DNA from: a virus
IMG/VR virus record: IMGVR_UViG_3300031873_000004
Coordinates: 15,432 to 79,431 of that record
Length of the DNA: 64,000 bases
Direction: 5' to 3' (one strand)
Part shown: piece after piece, positions 45,852 to 58,709 of the stretch
Position numbering within the stretch: the stretch's first letter is position 1
Layout: every line of letters begins with the position of its first letter
Program-made: the position numbers and the translations under genes
Notes under the pieces: model-generated
Told to the model about the DNA's origin: nothing
What the model saw: only the letters and a program-made list of their open reading frames with translations
Databases searched by the model: none

Positions 45852-48467
45852 TTACAACTCATCCCAGACAGCTCCGTTGTCATGCGGAAACTTCTCTATA
45901 TACTGAGCAAGCGCTTCATGTGCCCTATCGTCAAGCCCAGCACGTTTCAGGATGGACGCATAGGTTAGGAGGAAGTGGTCAAACTCCGTACTGTTGGACA
46001 TTGCTTCGCTTATCCACTTCAATCCCTCCTGCAAGTCAGCCACAGGATCGTTGTCAGCCCAGAGCTTGACGAGTACCTGGCCGTACTCGAACTTAAAGCG
46101 ATGGACTTCCTGAAAATCCTCCACCAACGACTTGTACTCAGCCGCCGCCAGGACCAAATTATCAAGCATGTTATATGCCGATGCGATGCCCCAGCGAGCT
46201 TCTTGACGGGTAGGAATTAACTCCTTTGCCTTCTTCAGCAACTCCATCGCCTCGCTGAACTTTTTACCATCGCGTCCAAGCTCAAGTGCTTCGTCTATGA
46301 GGTCGAGATACTCCGGGATTTTATTGCGATTGAGAGATAGATCAACCTCGTAAACGTCCTTTGCCTTCTCAATTGCATCCGTACGCATGATAATTGACCT
46401 ATCAATTATATCGGCAGCATGTTTCATGATCAAAGCATCGGGTCGAGGTGCTTGTTTCATTGTCCGACACGCTTCAAGATATGGTTTGGCGAATGCACCT
46501 GTGCTCAAATAGTGCTCAGCGTCATCTAAGCTCGGTGCATCGGGATCGCCAATCGAATCGAGTATTCCGGACTTCCCCTGACCGTACTCAATGAGCGTAT
46601 TGCGAGTCTCCTCGTAAGTTGCTTTCAGGTCCTTTGCGGCATCACGAGCGGCCTTCAGGATTATCTCGTTGCGGTCAAGCCTGATGTCTCGCTCCTTCTT
46701 AAACTTCTTGGTGGCAAGCAACTGCGCATCAGCCTCCACGTTGAGCGCCCGTCCCTGAATAGCTCGGCTTGCTCCGTATATGGCAAGCGATACTGTCGGC
46801 ATACGCTTAGCGGCTTCATACGCCACCGTGCTGTGTTTAGCATTTTCGTGAAATAGCTTCATCAGCTTTTTCTGACTGGTCGTGTTCCTCAATTTCATCA
46901 CGGTCTTGAGTCCCAGTTCAGCGTGCTCGATAATGAGCTTGAGCAGTTTCAAGTCAGTAGTGAGCAGCGGGAGCAATCGCTGAATGGTCGCGTCGGCATT
47001 CGGGTCGAGATTGAGCAGAGGCTTGAGCACTGATTTGTCTATTGGTGCAATGGCATGTTTAGCAAGGGCATCTGACAGGAACATACGCTTGGCCCCGCGC
47101 TTCCTCGCGCCACCCTCCGTACAGTCGATAGTCTCGGTATCTTTGAACGCTTCAATGAGTCGCTCAAACGCTGTGATAAACGTCATCAACCCTGTGTTCG
47201 TGAGCACTGAATCACCCCACCACCCTGCAACATAGGTCTCAGGCCCCATGCCGATGTCGGTGCGGGCGTGAAGCGTCTTGCTTCGCGGATCGTCAACCAC
47301 CCATTTGATCTGACCGTCAACCACAGTAATGTGACCAGCACTATCCGCTTGCATGAAATGGCTGGTCGTGCCGAGGGCTAGGTTCATTCCGACGAACATC
47401 ACAGGCGAGCATCCCATATGAGCGCAGAGCGAGTACGCCATATGAGCGACCGAGCCGCCCTGTGCCAGCTCACCTTTATCTTTCAAGATACCGTGAGCAG
47501 TTTCGTCATATCCCTGATTGATTGACGCGCTAATGAACTTCGGACCCTTGTACGCCTTGAGTATAGGTGCGTACGTCTTGTTGATAGTGACCAGCGGTAC
47601 GGTCTCGTCCATCAGTCCTGCGAGGTGGGTCATATTTACTTCACCGAAATCTACTGTACAAATGAAGTCTGGTGTGATGCCATAGGCGAGAAGAGGTCGG
47701 AGTGCCTGTGCTACTGCAACAATAATAACCTTGTCTTGTGTCTCTTTGAGCAGATGGATGTTGCGATTGAGAGCTGGACCTGTGCCAACCATCACTGCAG
47801 GCTTTCCCTTGAATAAATCCTTGAGGTCGTTTACTCCTCGATGGCGGATGACATATGGTAGGGTGGCGATGTCATTATCAGCAATCTTAGCTCCGGCGCT
47901 CACCACAGTCCCAGTATTGCACTGGATTGCGTTGAGCGACTCAATTGTGTACGTGCTCAGCTTCCAGTATTCCGGTCGAGTGCGAGTGATGAGTTCGATC
48001 AACACTCCCCAGTCCTCAACTACCTTTGAACCCTCCATGAGCGAAAGGAGGAAGTCAACTTCGGCTTTACCGGGAGCAATGAGTAGCGATTGATTTTTGA
48101 TATACTCGGACAAATCATATTGTGCAAACATCAATCTCAGCATATGAGATATAGGCTCAACTGCAATCACATGATGCCCTTTTTCCATTTTCTTGAGAAG
48201 TAAATTCAACGCATGACCGAGGCCCACGCCTATGAATACAGTGACTGTCTCTTTATCGGAGCGAACCATGTCAGCAACGCACTGTGCATCTTTGAATGGG
48301 TCGGTCACATCGTATACCGGTAGTGGTCGCCCATTCTCGGTTATCCAGAGCTGATCACCCTCATTCCGTATCCAATCCTCGGTTGCACCCTTCTCCAACC
48401 ACTCGGCAAGTCCGGGGTGGGTTTCTTTGATTGCTACCATGTTTTTCTCGTATATTTCAGTGCTCAT
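45852..48467 (-). CDS. maf: Maf-family (DUF115) nonulosonic-acid protein glycosyltransferase with C-terminal TPR-like helices
   Basis: YEKNM.AI, GVGLGH, VGTGPAL..N, GITPDF..TVD, GGSVAH...MGCSP...GMNLA, DCTEGGA. Confidence 0.85.
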   Translation of the reverse strand: MSTEIYEKNMVAIKETHPGLAEWLEKGATEDWIRNEGDQLWITENGRPLPVYDVTDPFKDAQCVADMVRSDKETVTVFIGVGLGHALNLLLKKMEKGHHVIAVEPISHMLRLMFAQYDLSEYIKNQSLLIAPGKAEVDFLLSLMEGSKVVEDWGVLIELITRTRPEYWKLSTYTIESLNAIQCNTGTVVSAGAKIADNDIATLPYVIRHRGVNDLKDLFKGKPAVMVGTGPALNRNIHLLKETQDKVIIVAVAQALRPLLAYGITPDFICTVDFGEVNMTHLAGLMDETVPLVTINKTYAPILKAYKGPKFISASINQGYDETAHGILKDKGELAQGGSVAHMAYSLCAHMGCSPVMFVGMNLALGTTSHFMQADSAGHITVVDGQIKWVVDDPRSKTLHARTDIGMGPETYVAGWWGDSVLTNTGLMTFITAFERLIEAFKDTETIDCTEGGARKRGAKRMFLSDALAKHAIAPIDKSVLKPLLNLDPNADATIQRLLPLLTTDLKLLKLIIEHAELGLKTVMKLRNTTSQKKLMKLFHENAKHSTVAYEAAKRMPTVSLAIYGASRAIQGRALNVEADAQLLATKKFKKERDIRLDRNEIILKAARDAAKDLKATYEETRNTLIEYGQGKSGILDSIGDPDAPSLDDAEHYLSTGAFAKPYLEACRTMKQAPRPDALIMKHAADIIDRSIIMRTDAIEKAKDVYEVDLSLNRNKIPEYLDLIDEALELGRDGKKFSEAMELLKKAKELIPTRQEARWGIASAYNMLDNLVLAAAEYKSLVEDFQEVHRFKFEYGQVLVKLWADNDPVADLQEGLKWISEAMSNSTEFDHFLLTYASILKRAGLDDRAHEALAQYIEKFPHDNGAVWDEL

Positions 48468-48575
48468 GAACCCTCCAAAACGCGATTTAAGCTACTTTGC
48501 CGACCTTGTCTATAGAAAGCCTCGTTCGAGCTATGAAAACGGCTTAAAAGCGTGTTTCTGCTCGTTTGCGAGGCA

Positions 48576-49133
48576 TTATCTAAGCTCATCCCAGCGCTTT
48601 CTGGTAATGCCATACCCGTTTATGGTCTCAAACTGCCCGTTGAGCCACATCCCATCCTCCCAAGCAGCTTCTTGCTTCATTCCGAGTGATTGGCAAATTT
48701 TGTTCATGCCGATATTTATGGATGCGGTACCTGTCCACACACGATTCATGTTCAGCTTGAGGAATGCGTGCTCCAGCATCCAGAAGCAGGCTTGTTTGCC
48801 GAATCCGAGCCCGCGACTTTTGCCGAGTACGATTGCAAGCTCGGCGCTGCGGGCGATGTAGTTGATGCCTTGCAGCGAGCAGTTGCCGATATGCTTCCAG
48901 AACCCACCGCCTTCAGCTCCCACATAAACTTCAATTGCCCACACAATCTTCTCGGCACTTCCCTGCTCGATCGTCTTGACAAATGCATCCATCGCGGTGG
49001 GAGTGTAAGGAAAGAGTCCGTGAGAATTGTAGCGCGTGACCGCCGAGTCGTGGAACCATGAGCGGTACTCATCTGTCATGTGCCTGCTTCGCTCGAACGG
49101 GACAATGCGCAGAATGTCGTTGCTGTATATCAT
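48576..49133 (-). CDS. GNAT N-acetyltransferase (PseH-like position)
   Basis: HIGNCSL..I....RSAELAI, GLGFG, HAF.KLNMNRV. Confidence 0.8.
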   Translation of the reverse strand: MIYSNDILRIVPFERSRHMTDEYRSWFHDSAVTRYNSHGLFPYTPTAMDAFVKTIEQGSAEKIVWAIEVYVGAEGGGFWKHIGNCSLQGINYIARSAELAIVLGKSRGLGFGKQACFWMLEHAFLKLNMNRVWTGTASINIGMNKICQSLGMKQEAAWEDGMWLNGQFETINGYGITRKRWDELR

Positions 49134-49134
49134 C

Positions 49135-50187
49135 TCACACCTCCGCCAGCATCGCCCGCAACTCGTCGGCGGTCAGCTCACCGTTCGGGTTGCGCCCGGA
49201 ATTGAACTCCCACTGCTTCGCCGCACCTATCTCCTGCTCGCACGCAAGATTGCGGCTGGCGAATACGCGATAATGGTCCTCATACTCGTAAACATAATCC
49301 TCTTCAGGGAACAAACACTCATGCAGCTTTTCGCCCTGACGGATGCCGGTGACCTTGAACTCCGGGATGACGTTTTCTTTTGGAAAAGTCCCATCGCACC
49401 ATGGGCAAAGAATTGAATGTGGTTTGCATGTACATTTTGATTTCGATGTCATAGCGATTGCCATGTCGCGCACACTCATGGACTTCATCTTCGGTACGAA
49501 TATCTCCCCGCCGTTCATGATTTCGATCCGTGAGAGAAGGAATCGCGCCACGGTCGGCAACGTCACCCAGAACCGTGTCATCGCGTTGTGTGTAATTGTG
49601 ATAGGTAGTCCCGCATCTGCTTGAGACTTGAAGACGTGAGCAACCGAGCCCCTGCTTCCGAGCACATTACCGTATCGGCATGATGAGAGTATCGTGCCAT
49701 GACCTGCCGCGTAAATGTTTCCATCCACAATAAGTTTCTCCGCCGCCATCTTCGTCGCGCCATACAGATTGACCGGTTTGCACGCCTTATCGGTACTGAC
49801 ATTCATCACCCTCCATACTTTGCAGTCGATTGCCGCGTTCAGCACATTCACTGCGCCGTCCACATTTGTCTTGATCGCTTCGAGTGGATTATCTTCGCAG
49901 GCTGGAACTTGCTTCATGGCTGCCGCATGGATCAAAATGTCCACCCCTCGGCAAGCGCGATGCATTCGCTTGGGATCTCGAATGTCACCTATCAGGAATG
50001 AGACCGGCGGCGAGTCTGGCGCGGTAAGCAGGGCTTTGAAGTCGTTGCGGAGTTGCCACTGTTTCAACTCGTCTCTCGACAGAATTCGTATTCCTTTCGG
50101 CTTGTGTTCGGTCAGCAGTAATTTGAGGAGTTGCTTTCCGAGGCTTCCCGTTCCGCCGGTTATCAGCACTTCTTTTCCTGTAATCAA
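49135..50187 (-). CDS. pseB: UDP-GlcNAc 4,6-dehydratase (PseB-like)
   Basis: ITGGTGSLG, SRDELKQ, AAAMKQVP, STDKA, NLYGATK, RYGNVLGSRGSV, MTRFW, GEKLHE. Confidence 0.92.
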   Translation of the reverse strand: MITGKEVLITGGTGSLGKQLLKLLLTEHKPKGIRILSRDELKQWQLRNDFKALLTAPDSPPVSFLIGDIRDPKRMHRACRGVDILIHAAAMKQVPACEDNPLEAIKTNVDGAVNVLNAAIDCKVWRVMNVSTDKACKPVNLYGATKMAAEKLIVDGNIYAAGHGTILSSCRYGNVLGSRGSVAHVFKSQADAGLPITITHNAMTRFWVTLPTVARFLLSRIEIMNGGEIFVPKMKSMSVRDMAIAMTSKSKCTCKPHSILCPWCDGTFPKENVIPEFKVTGIRQGEKLHECLFPEEDYVYEYEDHYRVFASRNLACEQEIGAAKQWEFNSGRNPNGELTADELRAMLAEV

Positions 50188-50296
50188 TAAATTTTCCTCC
50201 CTTGTGTTCGTAGTTTTTACCTTTGCCGCAGGTGTCGCACGGCTTATCTCTCGGATCTTTGTACGCGTGGCGGCATATCTTGCAAGTTGTCCACAT

Positions 50297-50674
50297 TCAC
50301 GTCACTCTCCCACTTTTTGTCTTCACAATGCTTTTCCTGAGTATCCGCATAACGGTTGAGATAGAAACTTTTTCAGGCTTAAACGGTTGTCCGTTTAATT
50401 CAGCAAGAAAATTATCCCTTCTGCTTTTCTTGCTTGTCGTAAGCGTTGAGTCTTCGCCGCGCAAATACAGTACATTAACTTTTCCTGACCTCATGCTTTC
50501 TATCGTTATTTTGTAGTTGCCGTAAGCGTGGGGTTGGTCGTAAATCGGCGTTATCCCGGCTTCGCGCATGGTCACATGTTCACGGTCCCATCGTACCTGC
50601 ACTGCACGGCTCGCCTTTTGAGATAGCTTTTGTTTTCGCTCTTCTCTTGTTTCTCGCATAGTTATGTATACCAT
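50297..50674 (-). CDS. Basic hypothetical protein
   Basis: ORF in operon context only. Confidence 0.5.
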   Translation of the reverse strand: MVYITMRETREERKQKLSQKASRAVQVRWDREHVTMREAGITPIYDQPHAYGNYKITIESMRSGKVNVLYLRGEDSTLTTSKKSRRDNFLAELNGQPFKPEKVSISTVMRILRKSIVKTKSGRVT

Positions 50675-50703
50675 GAACTTTGCAAAGTTGAGTTAATACC
50701 TGG

Positions 50704-50931
50704 TTATCTGTGAATGTTCAGATTGCACCGTTTAATGGCATCAGAAAAATCCTGAGTCACCAACTCGGCGTTTTTACCGCCGTTGAGTAAAACGTCACGT
50801 TGCGTACTGGCTGCAGAAAGCAGTTTCAATGCGTTTTCCCAGTCGGTCTTATCGACAACGACATGAGCGTGATCTGCTTCTTCCAAGTCCAGTTCCAGAT
50901 ATGTGTGCCTATGCAAAAAGTCCTGTGCCAT
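50704..50931 (-). CDS. Cassette 1 hypothetical protein
   Basis: Bounded by GTTATCT/AGATAAC; RBS AGGAGG. Confidence 0.6.
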   Translation of the reverse strand: MAQDFLHRHTYLELDLEEADHAHVVVDKTDWENALKLLSAASTQRDVLLNGGKNAELVTQDFSDAIKRCNLNIHR

Positions 50932-51006
50932 GTGGCCCTCCTAAAATTAGATAACAAGGCGCTCGACACCGACCCGCAAAAGCGCGGGTCAGCGCCGCGT
51001 TGGGCG

Positions 51007-51405
51007 TCAACTCCCGCTGCTCGTTCTCAGCTCAACGTCTGGAATAATCGTCTGCGGACGGAAGTTCACCGTGTACCTATACCCGCTCACTGATTTTTCT
51101 TCCAGCTGTTCGGAGAAGTAGGTCACGTTGTCGGAAATGCCGAGGTAGTGCTTTTTGTAAGCGTCATCGCCGGTTTTGCATGTGACTGCTAATTTGTCTC
51201 CGTGTTCCACTTGGCACTTTCCAGTAATAGTCAGAATGTACGTGTCCGTGATTCCGTTGTAAAATACGATTCTGCGGGTGATTTTGAACTCACCTGCCTC
51301 TACAGACAAATTTCGAGATACCACTGAAGCCTTTGTCTCACATCCGACGATGAAAAACACGCCCAACAATAAAATCAAGCTGACCGCCTTCTGCAATCTG
51401 TTCAT
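51007..51405 (-). CDS. Cassette 2 lipoprotein
   Basis: IVGC lipobox; RRIVFYNGIT; starts inside attC loop. Confidence 0.7.
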   Translation of the reverse strand: MNRLQKAVSLILLLGVFFIVGCETKASVVSRNLSVEAGEFKITRRIVFYNGITDTYILTITGKCQVEHGDKLAVTCKTGDDAYKKHYLGISDNVTYFSEQLEEKSVSGYRYTVNFRPQTIIPDVELRTSSGS

Positions 51406-51464
51406 ATTCTATATCCTCCTTGTGGTTTTGCTACCGCCGGTTTGGGCGGCAGCTTATTTTGTCG

Positions 51465-51839
51465 TTATGTGAATAAATACTCTACGTCATCGTTGAATAT
51501 TCGTAGTTCGTGCATCGTCAGGCTACCCGGTTTCCCGCCCTCTATCTTAGTTCCACAAGATGATCGGAAGCATACCCCCGGCGTGTTTTTTAAAAAGTAA
51601 TCCGCTGTTTCATCGGAGTATTCAAGGTTCAATTTTTCCGCTATTGTAACAACATCGGTTTCTCCGTGATGAAAAGCCAACAACAACGACAATGCCCCCT
51701 GATGGCTCCCGTCACAATAGAACAGGCCAAATACCCGGTCATATACAAATGGCTTTTTGGTATCTGCTTCCTTCAACGGAACTGGCCTGCTCATTCGAGC
51801 ATCAACCAATCTCCACCATCGTTGTTTCGTGATTCGCAT
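51465..51839 (-). CDS. Cassette 3 hypothetical protein
   Basis: Bounded by GTTATGT/ACATAAC. Confidence 0.6.
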   Translation of the reverse strand: MRITKQRWWRLVDARMSRPVPLKEADTKKPFVYDRVFGLFYCDGSHQGALSLLLAFHHGETDVVTIAEKLNLEYSDETADYFLKNTPGVCFRSSCGTKIEGGKPGSLTMHELRIFNDDVEYLFT

Positions 51840-51897
51840 GAAAACCTCACATAACCAGCGGCGTCGTGAGGGACGCTATGCTCCCCACACGCGCACG

Positions 51898-52161
51898 TTA
51901 TATGTTTATAATTGATAGAATCCTATCCGCTTCGTCACGGTCGCTATCTTTTTCGGATTCGGGCAGTTCAGAATATTTTGTATTCATTTGCCTTGTCCAT
52001 CGTTCAACTGCCCATTTTGGCATTGTAGCTGTTCCATCATCATTCAGAGTCATTTTGGAGAACATGTATATCATCCACCCTGACCATGCCTCATGCGCAT
52101 ATTCTGATAGAGATTCACGGACAGATAACAAAACGGTCGAATCAGATTTCGCTTCGCTCAA
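51898..52161 (-). CDS. Cassette 4 hypothetical protein
   Basis: HEAW, Y.EL.E.EK.SDR; starts inside attC. Confidence 0.6.
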   Translation of the reverse strand: MSEAKSDSTVLLSVRESLSEYAHEAWSGWMIYMFSKMTLNDDGTATMPKWAVERWTRQMNTKYSELPESEKDSDRDEADRILSIINI

Positions 52162-52176
52162 CTGTTCACCTCCGCG

Positions 52177-52329
52177 TTAGTATGTGTCAACCAAATCAAG
52201 GCAGACAGTCCTGTTTTTTTCCTCTGTAGTAAGTGTTTCCCATGCGAGTTTATGTGCCTCTTTTTGATTTTCGGCTGCAACTTCGACTTTCTTGTCTATC
52301 CCCTCAACGCAATAAATAAATGTATTCAT
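52177..52329 (-). CDS. Cassette 5 hypothetical protein
   Basis: Manual ORF MNTFIYCVEG...VDTY, 50 aa; RBS GGAGG. Confidence 0.55.
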   Translation of the reverse strand: MNTFIYCVEGIDKKVEVAAENQKEAHKLAWETLTTEEKNRTVCLDLVDTY

Positions 52330-52404
52330 TCTTTCCTCCCTAAAAGATTAGATTCAAAACCGGCATAACCATGCTGCTCCAGCGCGACGCGCTACGCTTG
52401 CGCG

Positions 52405-53220
52405 TCAGCTCCCCAACATTGGCCGCATTCCATCCCTCGGATCTGTACGCTGCATCCGCATTGCATCCAAATTGTCTCGCACACCAAGCATTGCACTCTC
52501 ACCCTCGCGCACAGTCTTGATGAGCCGCCTCAACCTCGATACTTCCCAGCAGTGACCGTGCTCGCTCTCACACCCGTCAAGACCGTCCAGGTCCATGTGA
52601 ACTTCAATTACCTCGGCATCCATCGCAATGGCGGTATGAATAACACCAGGCTTCACCGTGTGATCGCTCCATCCGACATGACACCCGAACGCCTGCTGAA
52701 GAGTTACCATCTTGCGCAACCCGCAATCCTCAGCCTTCGCCGGATACATCGGGGAGCAGTGATACAGCGTGAGCATCGCCGCATTCACCCCACCTCTCGC
52801 CGCCGCATTCACCGCCTTCGATATTTCAAACGAGGTAGCACCACCGGTCGAGATGGACAGCGGCTTACCTATTGAAGCGGTAAGCGTGATGAGGTCGGTG
52901 CAGAGTATTTCATACGAGCCTATCTTGAGCGCGTGAACGTAGTCCTTGCAATTCATCAACGAGTCTACGGAGGTGACAGTCATGTGCAGCTCGATCTCGT
53001 TGCAGTTTGCAGCACCTCGCAGGCGGGGGAGCCATCCGACGGGGAGGGCTCGCTTGTCGAGGATTGCCTGTATGGGCAGCTCGCGTGAGAGGGTGTGGTC
53101 GAACAGTTGAAATTTTGCGGCAGAGCATCCGGCACGCTTGGCTTCCTCGATGAGGCGCACGGCGCGGTCGATGTCAGAATTGTGATTGCTGCCTATATCG
53201 GCAATGAATTGTACACTCAT
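52405..53220 (-). CDS. neuB: NeuB/PseI-family nonulosonic acid synthase (no C-terminal SAF domain)
   Basis: IADIGSNH, KFQ, KIGS, STG, HC..MYP, GWSDHT, IEVH. Confidence 0.9.
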   Translation of the reverse strand: MSVQFIADIGSNHNSDIDRAVRLIEEAKRAGCSAAKFQLFDHTLSRELPIQAILDKRALPVGWLPRLRGAANCNEIELHMTVTSVDSLMNCKDYVHALKIGSYEILCTDLITLTASIGKPLSISTGGATSFEISKAVNAAARGGVNAAMLTLYHCSPMYPAKAEDCGLRKMVTLQQAFGCHVGWSDHTVKPGVIHTAIAMDAEVIEVHMDLDGLDGCESEHGHCWEVSRLRRLIKTVREGESAMLGVRDNLDAMRMQRTDPRDGMRPMLGS

Positions 53221-53397
53221 TTAGCTTCCCTCCGCTATAAAATAATCCTCTTTGTGAAAATAGTCATGTGCCCCGTTTATCCAATTCAAAGCCGATTGAT
53301 ATGTTATAAATATTTTAACCATAAAATATCGACCTTCATCTTCAGGTAAACTCGGTTTTCTGATAACATAAGTCATGATATTATTTCTTTCCTCCGT

Positions 53398-53589
53398 TCA
53401 TTCAACAACTCTTTCATGAGCACGTTTTAATTCAATTTTATAAGCTTCGCCCACAACATGTACATATCGCCTCATTATATATTCAAGCCATACTGTTACT
53501 TTTTCTTCACCCAACCAACCTGTGACGGGAATCAATGCGAAATGTCGATGCCATTCACAACGATTAAATCTTTTTTCATAAAATATCAC
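53398..53589 (-). CDS. Hypothetical protein
   Basis: WHRHFALIPV..VWLE; coupled overlap. Confidence 0.5.
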   Translation of the reverse strand: MIFYEKRFNRCEWHRHFALIPVTGWLGEEKVTVWLEYIMRRYVHVVGEAYKIELKRAHERVVE

Positions 53590-53792
53590 TTCTTCCCTCC
53601 ATTCGACAACTCTTTCATGAGCACATTCACCATTGCATCATTATTGGTTATTTCCGCCAGGAGCGCCCGCGTCTTGCGCGGTGCGGCGGTGAGCCCGACG
53701 CGGACTATGTTCATCCACGCCACATTATTCTTGGCGCGGACTTCCTGTACCTGCTGAATGATTGCCAAATCTGCTTTAGTCCCCTTCGTCAT
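53586..53792 (-). CDS. Hypothetical protein
   Basis: VRAKNNVAWM; GC-richer like the sugar genes. Confidence 0.55.
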   Translation of the reverse strand: MTKGTKADLAIIQQVQEVRAKNNVAWMNIVRVGLTAAPRKTRALLAEITNNDAMVNVLMKELSNGGKK

Positions 53793-54310
53793 AGCGACCT
53801 CGTTGCTTGCATTGAGAATCCAATGAACCAGACATTCTTATAGCCAATCCCGTACATCCGCCAACCCCATGCAATCCTGCCCCAGTAAAGCGTCATTATT
53901 CAGGCTCCTTGTTTACTATTTCATACACCATGTCGCGTATGCTATCTGCGAATGCTCGTGCAATGCAGTTGAGTTGTGTAGGCGTGGCGGTGACGTGGAT
54001 CATATGGTAACGGTATCTCAATCACCATAGGTTTGCTTATAGCCCATGTGGATTGACGATCTGTACCCATGTGAACGGTCATTGCAAATATCATATCCGA
54101 CTCCTATCCGATAAGTCGTTCTTTATCCGAGTACAGATTTATGACCAACTCAGGCCATTTAAACCACCCTTGACTGATGAGCTGGATGATCATAAATGGA
54201 GATTCGCATCCTGGATTTTTTACATTAAGTTTATCCCCTACAAACAGGTTAGCTTTTATGCAATCCTTATTTCTCTGTTGTACAGTGATTAGCATGTATA
54301 CTCCTTGCTA

Positions 54311-54340
54311 TATTATACTGAACTCGCGTCGTTTAGTTAT
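54311..54340 (-). promoter_or_regulatory. Non-consensus promoter class, copy 4
   Basis: ATAACTAAACGACGCGAGTTCAGTATAATA. Confidence 0.6.
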
Positions 54341-55758
54341 AACAATTCCTCGCGATTGATCCAGCACTTCTCGAACGCATTGTAGATGTCATCCAGGTCG
54401 CGGCGGGTGGCGTTTGGTCCGAACATGCGATGGATGATCACCAACTCCTCGGTGTACTGTCGCTTGCACTCCGGGGTCTCGTCCATTGAGCGCCCGAACA
54501 GCGGCATGGACTGAATCGGTTTAATGTAGCCCGTTCCGATCGTCACGCCTTCGCTCTCGCGATCCTTGACGGGTTGCAATTCTGCTTTGACCGCCGCAAT
54601 GTATCGGTCGCGGTGAAGTGAAATTTGTTTAAACTCACCTCCCGCAAACGACGGGTCATCAACATGCTCGAACGGCACTTTCCACTTCACGGGGAGGACA
54701 TAATACGAATGAGTACACCCTTCCCGCACTTTCGGCATCTCTAGACACGGGATGTCCTTGAGTTTGTTGACAAGGTAGTTCACATTGTCGGTGCGGAGCC
54801 TGAGCAACTCGTCGTGCTTGGCGAGCTGCACCCGCACAATCGCCGCGCTGATCTCCGGCAAGCGCAGGTTGAATCCGTACAGCTTACGATACCTTTCTGC
54901 TTTTTCTCTGGATTCAGATACGGTCTCTTTAGTGTTAAAATCTGTATCCCAATTTTCAACACTGGCGTATTCGAGAGGTACGCGCTTCCTATCCATATCG
55001 TTGACAACGGCTTCGGCATGGTTCATCAGCAGGCGACACCGGAACGCCAGCTCATCGTCATCAGTCACAATCATGCCGCCTTCTCCCGCCGTGAGATGCT
55101 TGCCGAGGTTGAACGAGTACACGCCTATATCACCGAGCGTGCCTGCGTACTTGAAGTTGCCGCCACCTATATCCATCGTGGAACCGAGTGCCTGGGCCGC
55201 ATCCTCGATCACATACGTTTTCTTGCCGGTCTCTTTGAAGTTGCGGTCGAGCAGCGCGTTGATATTCTTCGCGTCATACGGTTGCCCGAACAGGCTGACA
55301 GGAACCACGGCACTGAACTTGCTGAATGAGCCGATGATATGCTGAGCAATGCTATTTACATCCACGCAATAGTAGTCGCGCTCGATGTCGGCAAAGCGCA
55401 CACCCTGTCGCCAGTACATCGGTGCGGTTGCCGAGCATGTCATGCTGAACGGCGACACAATAGCGTCGCCTGCTGCGGGATTGTCCATGCCAACTGCGCC
55501 GCACGCAATGTGCAAGCCGGAGGTTGCGGAGTTACAGGAGATTGCGTGTTTTACTTTGAACTTTGCAGCCCATTCCTCTTCGAGGGCTCTGACTTCTTTA
55601 CCACCATAAAATGCAGGTCCGAAATTACCCATGAATCCTGTTAATTTCCCAGAATCAAGAACTCGCATCGCAGCTTCCTTTTCCGCAACCCCGATTGAAT
55701 TCTGGCTTGGAAAAAGATCATGCCTCACTGGAACTCCGCCATTGATAGCTAATTGCAT
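54337..55758 (-). CDS. DegT/DnrJ/EryC1/StrS sugar aminotransferase
   Basis: NSATSGL, IEDAAQALG, YSFNLGKHLTAGEGG, GFNLR. Confidence 0.93.
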   Translation of the reverse strand: MQLAINGGVPVRHDLFPSQNSIGVAEKEAAMRVLDSGKLTGFMGNFGPAFYGGKEVRALEEEWAAKFKVKHAISCNSATSGLHIACGAVGMDNPAAGDAIVSPFSMTCSATAPMYWRQGVRFADIERDYYCVDVNSIAQHIIGSFSKFSAVVPVSLFGQPYDAKNINALLDRNFKETGKKTYVIEDAAQALGSTMDIGGGNFKYAGTLGDIGVYSFNLGKHLTAGEGGMIVTDDDELAFRCRLLMNHAEAVVNDMDRKRVPLEYASVENWDTDFNTKETVSESREKAERYRKLYGFNLRLPEISAAIVRVQLAKHDELLRLRTDNVNYLVNKLKDIPCLEMPKVREGCTHSYYVLPVKWKVPFEHVDDPSFAGGEFKQISLHRDRYIAAVKAELQPVKDRESEGVTIGTGYIKPIQSMPLFGRSMDETPECKRQYTEELVIIHRMFGPNATRRDLDDIYNAFEKCWINREELL

Positions 55759-56381
55759 TATATCCTCCCTGATATTTGTCCTTTATTGTTTCGTTTAATA
55801 TTACACCACAACGGCTGACCGCGTTCCATTTCTTGCAAACGATGAAGTCTTGAATGTTCAGCGTTGGTCATAAGTTTCAAATTTTCAATTCTGTTATCGT
55901 CACGCACCCCGTTTATGTGATGTACCTTTTCATCTCTCGATAGATAACGACCGAGATGCTTTTCCATAACAACGCGATGTTCAGAAACGAAGCCCATAGA
56001 ACCTACGTTCGGGTGATCAGGTAGTCTGACTTCGATATAACCTGTTTTTGTTTTCCTACGATCACCACTCCAGCGATAATGTTTCGATCCTATTTTTGAA
56101 TCGGATATTTTCTTACGAGCTTCAACAGACATTGTCCATCCACTGTCAAGGTTACGTCGCACTCCTGCTTTTATTTTAGCTTTATGCTCAGGCGACAATA
56201 ATTTTCCCTTTCTCGAAGCCGCTATTTTATCACGGGTTTCTTGCGATACTATTTTTGCCGACATTCGAGCTTTAGTCTCGGGAGAATGTTTCTTTCCGTA
56301 AAAATGATTCTTATCACCTTTTAAAGATTCGGAAATTCGTTTACGAGACTCAAGACTCATTTTGCTACCTTTTACCATCAC
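55758..56381 (-). CDS. Free-standing NUMOD3-HNH homing endonuclease
   Basis: HFYGKKHSPETKARMS repeats; EHRVVME, VHHING.RDDNRIENL. Confidence 0.9.
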   Translation of the reverse strand: MMVKGSKMSLESRKRISESLKGDKNHFYGKKHSPETKARMSAKIVSQETRDKIAASRKGKLLSPEHKAKIKAGVRRNLDSGWTMSVEARKKISDSKIGSKHYRWSGDRRKTKTGYIEVRLPDHPNVGSMGFVSEHRVVMEKHLGRYLSRDEKVHHINGVRDDNRIENLKLMTNAEHSRLHRLQEMERGQPLWCNIKRNNKGQISGRI

Positions 56382-57340
56382 TTACCTCCTATATTTTCAA
56401 GAACCCCGTGCACTCGAATCGCATCCTCAGCCGTACAGCGAAGCGGCTCCCCATCGCGCAAGTGTTTCACCGCATTGTCAGCCAGGTGCAGCAGCGCCTT
56501 ATCCAGCCCCGTCCGCGTCACCTGTGCCGTAGTGCCGAGCGACTTGTACTGCCCAAAGGTCTGCTCCTGCTCTGGTTCATAGTGCCTGATTTCTTTGCCC
56601 CAGTTCGGGAATCGAAGAACACCCTTTTCGGTAACGAACTCCATCTCGAATGCTCCCCATGCTCGCGAGTCAGTGCCGACCATGTATGCCTCTTTGCAGC
56701 GATCAAACTCAAGTCGAACGGTGTAGGAAGGGTCGTCTGCTGATCGGTCGACGATGCCTCCGTGATGGAACGATACCCCCCTGCATTCTCCCAGTGCCCA
56801 GAGGAACAAATCAAGTCCGTGGCAGCCATCGTGACGTAATCCCCTGCCGTATAAACATCTGGCGTGATAAATCTCTCCGTATTGCCCGTCCCGGAGTCCG
56901 TTGAGCACGTCGCTGTGCATGTCGTCGAATCGTCTGATGTAGTCCACCATGAGCGGTATGCCAGCCTGTTTATAAGCGTCTGCAACACTGCGAGCCTCCT
57001 TGATATTGGAGCAAAAAGGTTTCTCCGCAACTACAAGTTTAGGCTTCCGTTTCAATACATCCATAAGCACTTCATGATGAGTCTCGGTCGGGGTCGCCAC
57101 AATATAAATATCTGCCAATTTAGCAACACCATGCCAACTGACAAACCCGTTGCAGTTCCATTTGGCGGAGGCGTTGTGCGTCGATGCAATACTATTATCC
57201 ATGACCCATATCAACTCCGTATCTGGATGGTTATGAAACGCGTGGGCGTGTGTGAGGATCGCGTCTGTAGTCGGGGAGTCATATCGGTCATCCTTACTAC
57301 TCCCAATTGATCCGCACCCGATAATTGCAACACTGTACAT
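56378..57340 (-). CDS. Gfo/Idh/MocA oxidoreductase
   Basis: IIGCGSIG, ATPT..H, EKP, RRF, H..D. Confidence 0.88.
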   Translation of the reverse strand: MYSVAIIGCGSIGSSKDDRYDSPTTDAILTHAHAFHNHPDTELIWVMDNSIASTHNASAKWNCNGFVSWHGVAKLADIYIVATPTETHHEVLMDVLKRKPKLVVAEKPFCSNIKEARSVADAYKQAGIPLMVDYIRRFDDMHSDVLNGLRDGQYGEIYHARCLYGRGLRHDGCHGLDLFLWALGECRGVSFHHGGIVDRSADDPSYTVRLEFDRCKEAYMVGTDSRAWGAFEMEFVTEKGVLRFPNWGKEIRHYEPEQEQTFGQYKSLGTTAQVTRTGLDKALLHLADNAVKHLRDGEPLRCTAEDAIRVHGVLENIGGK

Positions 57341-58096
57341 TTATATCACCCCCGGCGTCGTTGATTTCACTTCTGAGTTGGTAAGCAGTTCCCGATGAGT
57401 GTTGAGGAAGTGAACGAGCGCACCGGCTTGGAAGTCTGTTGAATAAAATCGCACATAATGATCATAGCAAGCGCGGAGCACTTTCAAGTCAGCCGCCGTA
57501 TCGAGTGTCAGCCGCCAGTGAGGCTTGTTCGACACCCCAACCGCATTGTGACCCGCCCGGCTGAACCACCCCTTCGGAGCTTGAGTTATATTCCAGCCGC
57601 TGTGCTCGCGGATCGCCCAGTTGGATTCAGCAATGCGGATGAGCGACTTCATCTTGTATACTTGCACGTCAAGTCCATCCGGCCACGTCCTCGGCTCAAT
57701 GTTGCTTGCGTAGTCAACCCCGTTGCGCAGTATCATAGAAACAAGAAGGTTGATGTGGCGAGGATCTGCAAATGGGCAGTCGCTGGTCACATCGACGATC
57801 ACACGGGGGCTGTATGCGCTTGCGGCTTCGAGTGTCCTGCCGAGTACGTCATCCTCGCTTCCGCAATGGACGGGCCACCCTCTTTGGCGGCACAGCTCCA
57901 CTATCGGTCTGTCCGCTTTGTTTGTTGTCGTTGCTATCACCACCTCGTCGACGGTGTTTGCCATCCTGACTCGCTCGACCGTCCACTCCAGAGCCGTCCA
58001 CGGGCCGATTTTCATCAGCACTTTTCCGGGGAGACGCGTGGAGCTTAGCCGTGCTTGAACGATTCCCAATACTTGCACCAGTTCCTCCTGTTTCAC
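57341..58096 (-). CDS. spsF: SpsF/PseF-like cytidylyltransferase (CMP-NulO synthetase)
   Basis: QARLSSTRLPGKVL, GSEDDVL, TSDCP, PDGLDV, REH, RLTLDT. Confidence 0.9.
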   Translation of the reverse strand: MKQEELVQVLGIVQARLSSTRLPGKVLMKIGPWTALEWTVERVRMANTVDEVVIATTTNKADRPIVELCRQRGWPVHCGSEDDVLGRTLEAASAYSPRVIVDVTSDCPFADPRHINLLVSMILRNGVDYASNIEPRTWPDGLDVQVYKMKSLIRIAESNWAIREHSGWNITQAPKGWFSRAGHNAVGVSNKPHWRLTLDTAADLKVLRACYDHYVRFYSTDFQAGALVHFLNTHRELLTNSEVKSTTPGVI

Positions 58097-58709
58097 TGCC
58101 GACCTCCTTGACGGTTGACACACCGTTTCGCATTGTGACCTCGAATGCTTTGTCAGCCGCTTCGATCAACTGAGGGTCATGACTGACGAGGATTATTTGG
58201 ATGTTTAATCGCTTTGATATTTCCTTCAGCATCTCGCCAAACTTACCTCGCAAATTAGCACTGATGAATTTGCCAGGTTCGTCAAGGATTATTGTGTTGC
58301 GGGTGCGCGGGGACTTGAGCGACCAGAGGGCGAAGCGGAGCGCGTTCGCCGCCACATCCACCGCACCGCCGCCGGATGCGGTCATAGGGTGAACTCTCTC
58401 GCCGTCCCGCTCGAAGTACAGCTCAGCCTCGGTGCGCTCGCGCTTGATGACAAAGTCCACCTTGAACTTGTAAGCATCGTCAAAAACCGCAGAGAGCGCA
58501 AGGCTTACCAGCTCGCTCACGTGATATTCAAGTTCTTGCTGCGTGAGCTTGGCAACCTCTTGGATGACGGCGCGCGCTTTGTCCGCAGCATCGGTGCGGG
58601 TTGTGAGCTTGTCAACACGAATGCTGGATGCGGTCAGTTCGGCGGTTATGTGGTCGCGCTGACCCTTGCGCCGGTCAATTTCGCTGCGTATGGTGCGGAA
58701 GTCTTTCAT
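57849..58709 (-). CDS. SbcC/Rad50 C-terminal half
   Basis: Signature ASGGG, Walker B IILDEP, SHD. Confidence 0.82.
   Translation of the reverse strand: MKDFRTIRSEIDRRKGQRDHITAELTASSIRVDKLTTRTDAADKARAVIQEVAKLTQQELEYHVSELVSLALSAVFDDAYKFKVDFVIKRERTEAELYFERDGERVHPMTASGGGAVDVAANALRFALWSLKSPRTRNTIILDEPGKFISANLRGKFGEMLKEISKRLNIQIILVSHDPQLIEAADKAFEVTMRNGVSTVKEVGSETGGTGASIGNRSSTAKLHASPRKSADENRPVDGSGVDGRASQDGKHRRRGGDSNDNKQSGQTDSGAVPPKRVARPLRKRG

Follow-up and report, generated by a model that had tools for sequence, protein, structure and literature searches.

Gram-negative bacteria assemble their resistance and defence genes mainly by way of integron cassettes. Tailed phages can hold them as well, and Qi, Rajabal, Ghaly, Tetu and Gillings (2023, Front Microbiol, PMC9892861) describe clusters of attC sites lacking an integron integrase (CALINs) in phage genomes. 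Here we analyze a comparable integrase-less, attC-bounded array at 50703-52410 of a 64-kb window; the window is the whole stretch of DNA analyzed, positions 15432-79431 of the IMG/VR record IMGVR_UViG_3300031873_000004 (79,431 bp; estimated 97% complete). Five small minus-strand genes are encoded in the array, and the imperfect palindromes that lie between them have AAC and GTT at their flanks. A sequence-only reading had proposed an integrase-less attC cassette array at these positions, and a covariance model (R1), the positions of the bulged bases and the complementarity of the cassette boundaries all agree with that proposal. Its novelty is smaller than the reading implied, as phage CALINs had already been published in the paper cited above; the array is of this known kind, in a mirrored variant with translation starts borne by attC sites. 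We consider it very likely that 50703-52410 is a genuine integron gene-cassette cluster without integrase, in mirrored orientation, in a recombinase-free myovirus; its cassettes would be exchanged by the integron integrase IntI.

The CALIN of Tetrasphaera phage TJE1 has the same attC architecture as the window array and likewise has complementary boundary heptamers; its genes, however, lie on the attC top strand, whereas those of the window lie on the bottom strand. In MW202573, a record from the same publication, the strand relation between genes and attC sites is by our own analysis that of the window. The portions of PMC9892861 consulted make no mention of a mirrored orientation or of start codons within attC, and we found no published description of a mirrored layout with attC-borne starts. 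Unlike those CALINs, the window array is located inside a nonulosonic-acid sugar operon. Class 1 integron cassettes (aadA1/aadA7, oxa2) share the R''-spacer-L''...L'-spacer-R' layout of the sites, with extra bases at 16/23 as in attC2 or at 16/20/24 as in attC4 (Table 1). In contrast to class 1 arrays, the window has no intI, attI or cassette promoter (Pc), has its genes on the bottom strand, and carries accessory cargo rather than resistance genes.

When the + strand is read from one crossover point to the next (written here as G/TT), the array divides into cassettes at 50704-50999, 51000-51464, 51465-51897 and 51898-52176, with an incomplete fifth from 52177, and each contains one complete minus-strand gene together with its ribosome-binding site (RBS). 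The core that opens a cassette is complementary to the inverse core of that cassette's own attC at 7/7, 7/7, 7/7 and 6/7 positions in cassettes 1-4. As the sequence-only reading had observed, GTTATCT (50703) and AGATAAC (50949), GTTGGGC (50999) and GCCCAAC (51361), and GTTATGT (51464) and ACATAAC (51849) are exact reverse complements, while GTTATAT (51897) and AGATAAC (52123) have a single mismatch; the boundary of cassette 5 agrees at only 4/7 positions. For the cassettes whose start is set by the preceding attC, such complementarity has a chance probability of about (1/256)^2 x 0.05. The GTTA core also provides the stop codon TAA of four of the five genes, again as the earlier reading had it, and in the remaining gene (51405-51007) a TGA follows one base past the core.

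A bare G/TT junction without an adjacent attC is the expected product of insertion between an attC and an attG or secondary GTT site (Loot et al., 10.1101/2022.09.11.507474). The left end of the array is bare in just this way, with no covariance-model or structural match upstream of 50703, and we interpret it as a probable attG-like or secondary-site junction. The intact attC that would be expected at the other end is, in contrast, truncated here, and the right end of the array consists of a remnant only, in which GCATAAC and a 7-bp hairpin overlap the NeuB stop. Four of the five attC-like palindromes in the sequence-only reading are attC sites at the coordinates it proposed, while the fifth (52363-52410), which lacks an R' box or GTT and has no R1 score, is a remnant.

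The sites were searched for on both strands with R1, a model built from ten seeds (seven class 1 attC and three TJE1 phage attC), and with a structural pattern in which AAC is followed by a spacer of 3-6 nt, 3-5 bp, one extra C, a further 3-6 bp, one extra A or T and then two or more bp, both extras being on the AAC arm. The only R1 matches in the window are attC1, attC2 and attC4, all on the + strand, with none on the minus strand and none in the rest of the 79-kb record beyond the window. True Vibrio anguillarum attC from outside the seed score 13-23 bits with R1, below the three window sites, and reversing the strand lowers the scores of true sites greatly. The structural pattern has four matches on the + strand of the 64 kb, all of them in the array, no match on the minus strand, and none in any of 12 dinucleotide shuffles of the 64 kb. 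The same structural strings were obtained with the positive controls, namely the R100 aadA1 attC, three TJE1 attC, class 1 arrays (P1 phage, Salmonella island) and a Vibrio anguillarum integron fragment in phage Va_90-11-286_p16. All four sites have AAC and GTT core boxes 50-150 nt apart, while the strict consensus RYYYAAC/GTTRRRY is matched by only some of the heptamers. Partial fit to the strict consensus is common among attC sites. A scan with the strict consensus recovered only one of the sites and was dropped as too narrow; a second model was dropped as its MAFFT alignment of short and 126-nt attC sites misaligned the 3' arms, and reverse-strand matches of seed sites likewise excluded an automatic iterated model. 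Two of the TJE1 attC sites recombined with IntI1 in the assay given in PMC9892861.

The extra bases of three of the sites are arranged as in known IntI substrates. Counting from the first base of R'', the top-strand extras C16/A23 (attC2), C16/A20/A24 (attC1) and C16/T20/A24 (attC4) correspond on the bottom strand to G16/T23, G16/T20/T24 and G16/A20/T24, which are the layouts of attC-aadA7, VCR2 and attC-oxa2, respectively (PMC5027507). This agrees with the extrahelical G and T that the sequence-only reading assigned to the bottom strand of attC2 (51361), whose alignment string is moreover that of the R100 aadA1 attC, and the G16/T20/T24-type bulges of attC1 are shared with the Vibrio cholerae repeats (VCR). 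In attC3 the extra bases (C17/A21) are one position off the canonical register, and this is also the site that folds best, with z = -2.9 relative to shuffles for the top strand and z = -2.4 for the bottom strand. The bottom strand of attC1 folds at -15.6 kcal/mol (z = -2.4). At each of the four sites the fold of the minus strand is slightly better than that of the + strand, and better bottom-strand folding has been reported for attC (PMC5027507). Elsewhere in the window, two long hairpins at 204-299 and 48465-48570, which share the motif CGCGATTTAAGC, are among its best AAC...GTT-flanked palindromes; no attC-type bulges are present in them, and they may be copies of a regulatory element.

Table 1. 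Features of the cassette array and its flanks (window coordinates).
Feature	Position	Strand	Evidence
125-aa flanking backbone gene, function unknown	50297..50674	-	97-99% identity in runs X2-X5
Left junction GTTATCT; G/TT crossover opening cassette 1; no attC to left	50703..50709	+	reverse complement of AGATAAC 50949
Cassette 1 gene, 75 aa, no family match; stop TAA = TTA of G/TTA	50704..50931	-	
attC1, 57 nt; R'' AGATAAC, R' GTTGGGC; extras C16, A20, bulge from A24 (VCR2-type)	50949..51005	+	R1 28.7 bits, E = 6.5e-4; structural scan
Cassette 2 gene, 132-aa lipoprotein, Phage_VG64 / phrog_478	51007..51405	-	Pfam E = 2e-47, PHROG
attC2, 110 nt; R'' GCCCAAC, R' GTTATGT; extras C16, A23 (attC-aadA7/aadA1 layout)	51361..51470	+	R1 38.7 bits, E = 3e-6
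Cassette 3 gene, 124 aa, function unknown	51465..51839	-	eleven homologues support full length
attC3, 55 nt; R'' ACATAAC, R' GTTATAT; extras C17, A21	51849..51903	+	structural scan
Cassette 4 gene, 87 aa, RyR-domain-like	51898..52161	-	weak Pfam RyR match, E = 0.0012
attC4, 60 nt; R'' AGATAAC, R' GTTAGTA; extras C16, T20, A24 (attC-oxa2 layout)	52123..52182	+	R1 25.9 bits
Cassette 5 gene, 50 aa, weak DpnD/PcfM-like match	52177..52329	-	Pfam
Fifth attC remnant; R''-like GCATAAC and 7-bp hairpin; NeuB stop codon in 3' arm	52363..52410	+	
NeuB (nonulosonic-acid synthase), flanking backbone gene	52405..53220	-	Pfam PF03102, E = 1.6e-40

By definition, the top strand of an attC carries its extra bases on the arm with 5'-AAC-3' (PMC5027507). 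The top strand of the array is the + strand, because the extra bases lie on the AAC arm there and all R1 matches are on +. All five genes are on the minus, or attC bottom, strand and so run antisense to the attC polarity, as the sequence-only reading had stated. In a textbook cassette the gene is on the top strand, lacks a promoter and is read from Pc; here five genes are on the bottom strand, and in every bacterial control, as in TJE1, the genes are on the top strand. The alternative of reading the minus strand as a series of sense cassettes (stop, hairpin, GTTA, RBS, ATG) is ruled out by the extra bases and by the strand of the R1 matches, and such a reading would also cut two genes at their 13th codon. 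Since each + strand cassette encloses one reverse-strand gene and then its attC, the attC bottom strand is the coding strand of the genes, and the bottom strand of an attC is the one folded and cut by the integron integrase.

The mirrored layout is also present in five other phage records (MW202573, L087, L001, L011 and L141). The published CALIN MW202573 has four R1 matches, with the GenBank genes on the other strand and complementary boundaries; in L087 an attC scoring 48 bits is opposite to the flanking genes, and in L001 an attC lies downstream of the closest homologue of the cassette 2 gene. TJE1 is the only sense case in what is a small phage sample. No IntI was found in five other attC-bearing phage records, one of which encodes an ordinary phage integrase that scores 43 bits against the 265-bit cut-off. 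The attC of L087 (203-268) is AT-rich (27% GC) and scores higher with R1 than any site of the window, and this phage contig also encodes a PseB homologue. Reverse-oriented cassettes, for example those with toxin-antitoxin genes, are a minority in chromosomal integrons and have their own promoters. They share with the window array a gene antisense to the attC polarity; in the window, by contrast, all genes are reversed and belong to one operon, and two take their RBS and start from attC. Vibrio cassettes are mostly sense, with 17/20 of the annotated genes so oriented in L083.

Each attC precedes its own gene as a 5' leader, and two of the sites also carry the RBS, the start codon and the first 13 codons, in agreement with the RBS and starts (51405 and 52161) that the sequence-only reading had placed inside attC. 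The RBS, ATG and first 13 codons of the cassette 2 gene are inside attC2, and attC4 contains the RBS GGAGG, the TTG start and the 13-codon leader MSEAKSDSTVLLS of the cassette 4 gene, a leader it has in common with L141. A 104-aa open frame at 51866-52180 of the + strand, opposite the RyR-like gene, starts inside attC3 and ends in the GTTAG of attC4; it has no family match and is probably not a gene.

That the cassette genes are real is borne out by the Phage_VG64 match of gene 2, the weak domain matches of genes 4 and 5, and the homologues that cover gene 3 in full. Relatives of the cassette 2 gene are encoded at 138 viral loci. Homologues of the cassette 3 gene are found in Polaromonas, in Variovorax and on plasmids, located away from attC sites, and no close relative of gene 1 or gene 3 was found among the viral contigs searched. 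The cargo looks to be derived from phages or mobile elements rather than borrowed from classical integrons, because the gene 3 homologues are off attC and gene 2 is rarely linked to one. The cassette 3 gene family (L112-L132; about 125 aa) has conserved PFVYDR and AMSLLLA motifs, sometimes occurs as two copies per contig, and is found in Polaromonas, Variovorax, a Geobacterales metagenome-assembled genome, and Pseudomonas and Acinetobacter plasmids.

The phage record encodes terminase, portal, major capsid, tail sheath, tape measure and baseplate hub proteins, a set that makes the phage myovirus-type. The array is positioned between NeuB and a 125-aa gene, inside a minus-strand nonulosonic-acid block of about 45.8-58 kb in which Maf, a PseB-like dehydratase, NeuB and a DegT aminotransferase are recognized by Pfam. 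This nonulosonic-acid (pseudaminic/legionaminic-type) set occupies 45852-58100 of the window and includes an 871-aa Maf glycosyltransferase with TPR repeats, and the array interrupts the operon. The sequence-only reading had suggested looking for intI in the rest of the genome, and a search of the whole 79.4-kb record found no member of the IntI family (TIGR02249) and no Phage_integrase domain (PF00589). The array has four attC sites within 1.3 kb and no integron integrase nearby, in line with the definition of a CALIN as at least two close attC without one (Cury et al. 2016); a complete integron, with intI, attI and Pc beside the array, is not present, as there is no intI and the left end is a bare GTT junction.

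The sequence-only reading had further proposed a phage cassette pool, and a shared pool of cassettes or attC sites is supported by attC4 in an unrelated phage and by three attC with unlike flanks elsewhere. A 20-mer of attC4 is present in two other viral contigs, L140 and L141. At 2404-2463 of L141, 57/60 positions are identical to attC4 (95%), and similarity falls to background just outside the R boxes. The phages of L140 and L141 look unrelated to that of the window, because the window capsid protein has no match in the record of either. The L141 cassette is bounded by GTTATCG/CGATAAC and has a reverse-strand gene that begins at the same TTG within the attC, with the leader MSKAKSDSTVLLS; after this shared start and leader, a Lar restriction-alleviation protein follows in L141 versus the RyR-domain protein in the window. 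Sedentary integrons (VCR, and the V. anguillarum repeats in Va_90-11-286_p16) likewise reuse an attC family with different cassette bodies, although the window sites, at 55-110 nt, are heterogeneous, unlike the repeats of sedentary integrons.

Several further features of these two records were observed. In L141:2026-2442 (-), a Lar domain and a C-terminal ImmA/IrrE (Peptidase_M78) part are joined in one frame across the GTTATCG boundary according to Pfam, which suggests the fusion of two cassette genes at the place of a lost attC. A geneless cassette of about 300 nt (L141:2464-2770) lies between GTTGGTG and its exact complement CACCAAC. Within this cassette is a long inverted repeat, CCTTTTACGTCTGGGCGGG ... 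CCCGCCCAGACGTAAAAG; the R' of its attC is degenerate (ATT for GTT), and R1 matches that attC only in part, at 2726-2764. The 83-kb phage record to which L140 belongs (G002) has at least four further R1 matches (52080-52136, 66328-66386, 67366-67426 and 71914-71999), and because these fall in two regions the record has more than one cassette cluster.

We also compared contigs of four other sediment metagenomes (X2-X5), which belong to four studies with the same year and habitat and possibly to one campaign. Both backbone flanks of the array are present in the X2-X5 contigs. Separate contigs contain attC1 (50951-51000) and attC4 (52124/6-52180) with unlike sequence on both sides, attC4 having other flanks in three runs (X2, X4 and X5), and one X2 contig matches over attC3 as far as 51900 and is unlike from there on. 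The cassette bodies have no contig cover in X2-X5, a coverage gap that is not evidence of their absence. Contigs of three runs stop at exactly 50706, three bases into G/TTA, which is a weak hint of a branch point. A NeuB search of viral contigs returned no close relative for junction mapping: L086 keeps the order NeuB-X-PseB without an array, but its NeuB is only 41% identical, and L139 ends 50 nt after NeuB. A match of an attC1 22-mer in L142 was discarded as chance, since it is inside a 550-aa gene, and an attC3 22-mer had no match.

A number of observations weigh against a working cassette cluster, and most of them would also fit an array that has become a fossil, once acquired by IntI-type or illegitimate recombination with a host or phage array and now inert, its hairpins surviving as intergenic RNA structures. 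The phage has no IntI or other integrase. Truncation of the fifth site means that the array may be in decay. The comparison of folds with shuffles favoured attC1 and attC3, but attC4 folds no better than shuffles (z = +1.4) and is thus thermodynamically weak. The covariance-model check on both strands recovered three sites, on the + strand only, and missed attC3, with its one-base shift in register, although R1 is a home-made 10-seed model and not the attc_4 of IntegronFinder. As to the cargo, homologues of gene 3 are away from any attC in 21 bacterial genomes, gene 2 is a common phage gene seldom found beside attC, and neither is classical integron cargo. Finally, current shuffling is not directly evidenced, and among the relatives examined none was near enough to reveal gain or loss of a cassette exactly at G/TT. 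Even so, we regard a fossil as unlikely. Three of the sites retain exact canonical bulges and perfect boundary complementarity, which would be expected to decay if unselected; an unrelated phage has attC4 at 95% identity; and copies of the attC sites in several other contexts, in four other metagenomes, point to recent exchange.

Still less probable, in our judgment, is that the sites serve another recombinase, for example a tyrosine recombinase of the host, Xer-like or otherwise, that acts on single strands once folded, and for which the mirrored polarity would be the normal one. The recurrence of the mirrored layout in several phages does suggest a rule rather than an accident, and six phage records have no IntI. 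However, the sites score with a model trained solely on IntI substrates and reproduce the IntI-specific G16/T20/T24 and G16/T23 geometry, and comparable phage attC were recombined by IntI1, as reported in PMC9892861. That these are ordinary intergenic hairpins or terminators resembling attC by chance is scarcely credible: the sites do lie between co-directional genes and three terminator-like pattern matches overlap attC1 and attC2, but such matches number 11 versus 11.7 in shuffles, no T run follows the main hairpins on the sense strand, R1 matches occur only here and on one strand while the structural pattern is found 0 times in 12 shuffles, and a terminator model leaves the heptamer complementarity across genes unexplained.

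If the array is, as we favor, a mirrored cassette cluster mobilized by IntI, the integrase would be supplied in trans by the host, and cassettes would be gained, lost and exchanged through attC x attC recombination, with entry also possible through attC x GTT secondary-site insertion. The cassette genes would be transcribed as part of the phage operon, from an operon or phage promoter. With the mirrored polarity, the recombinogenic strand would be the non-template (or lagging-template) strand of the phage, and as the bottom strand is the coding, non-template strand, recombination by host IntI might be favored during phage transcription and replication. The same genes would presumably be silent if parked in a host integron behind Pc. 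We tentatively extend this to a broader proposal, about which we remain more doubtful than confident: phages may keep their own class of mirror-image cassettes, in which attC acts as a portable initiation module, recombination by host IntI is favored on the non-template strand, and the genes are silent when antisense to Pc.

The array thus presents a phage without any recombinase that holds structurally canonical cassettes, with genes systematically reversed and attC sites supplying translation starts. The presence of the same attC before a RyR-domain gene and before a Lar anti-restriction gene suggests a phage-side pool of accessory and counter-defence genes. The questions on which the array bears are the origin of cassettes and their reach beyond bacteria. 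Should the mirrored polarity prove to be a rule, the coupling of strand choice, transcription and cassette capture would become approachable. If phages do keep a mirror-image class, this could bear on how cassettes are born, and bacterial integrons and phages would be two sides of one cassette economy.

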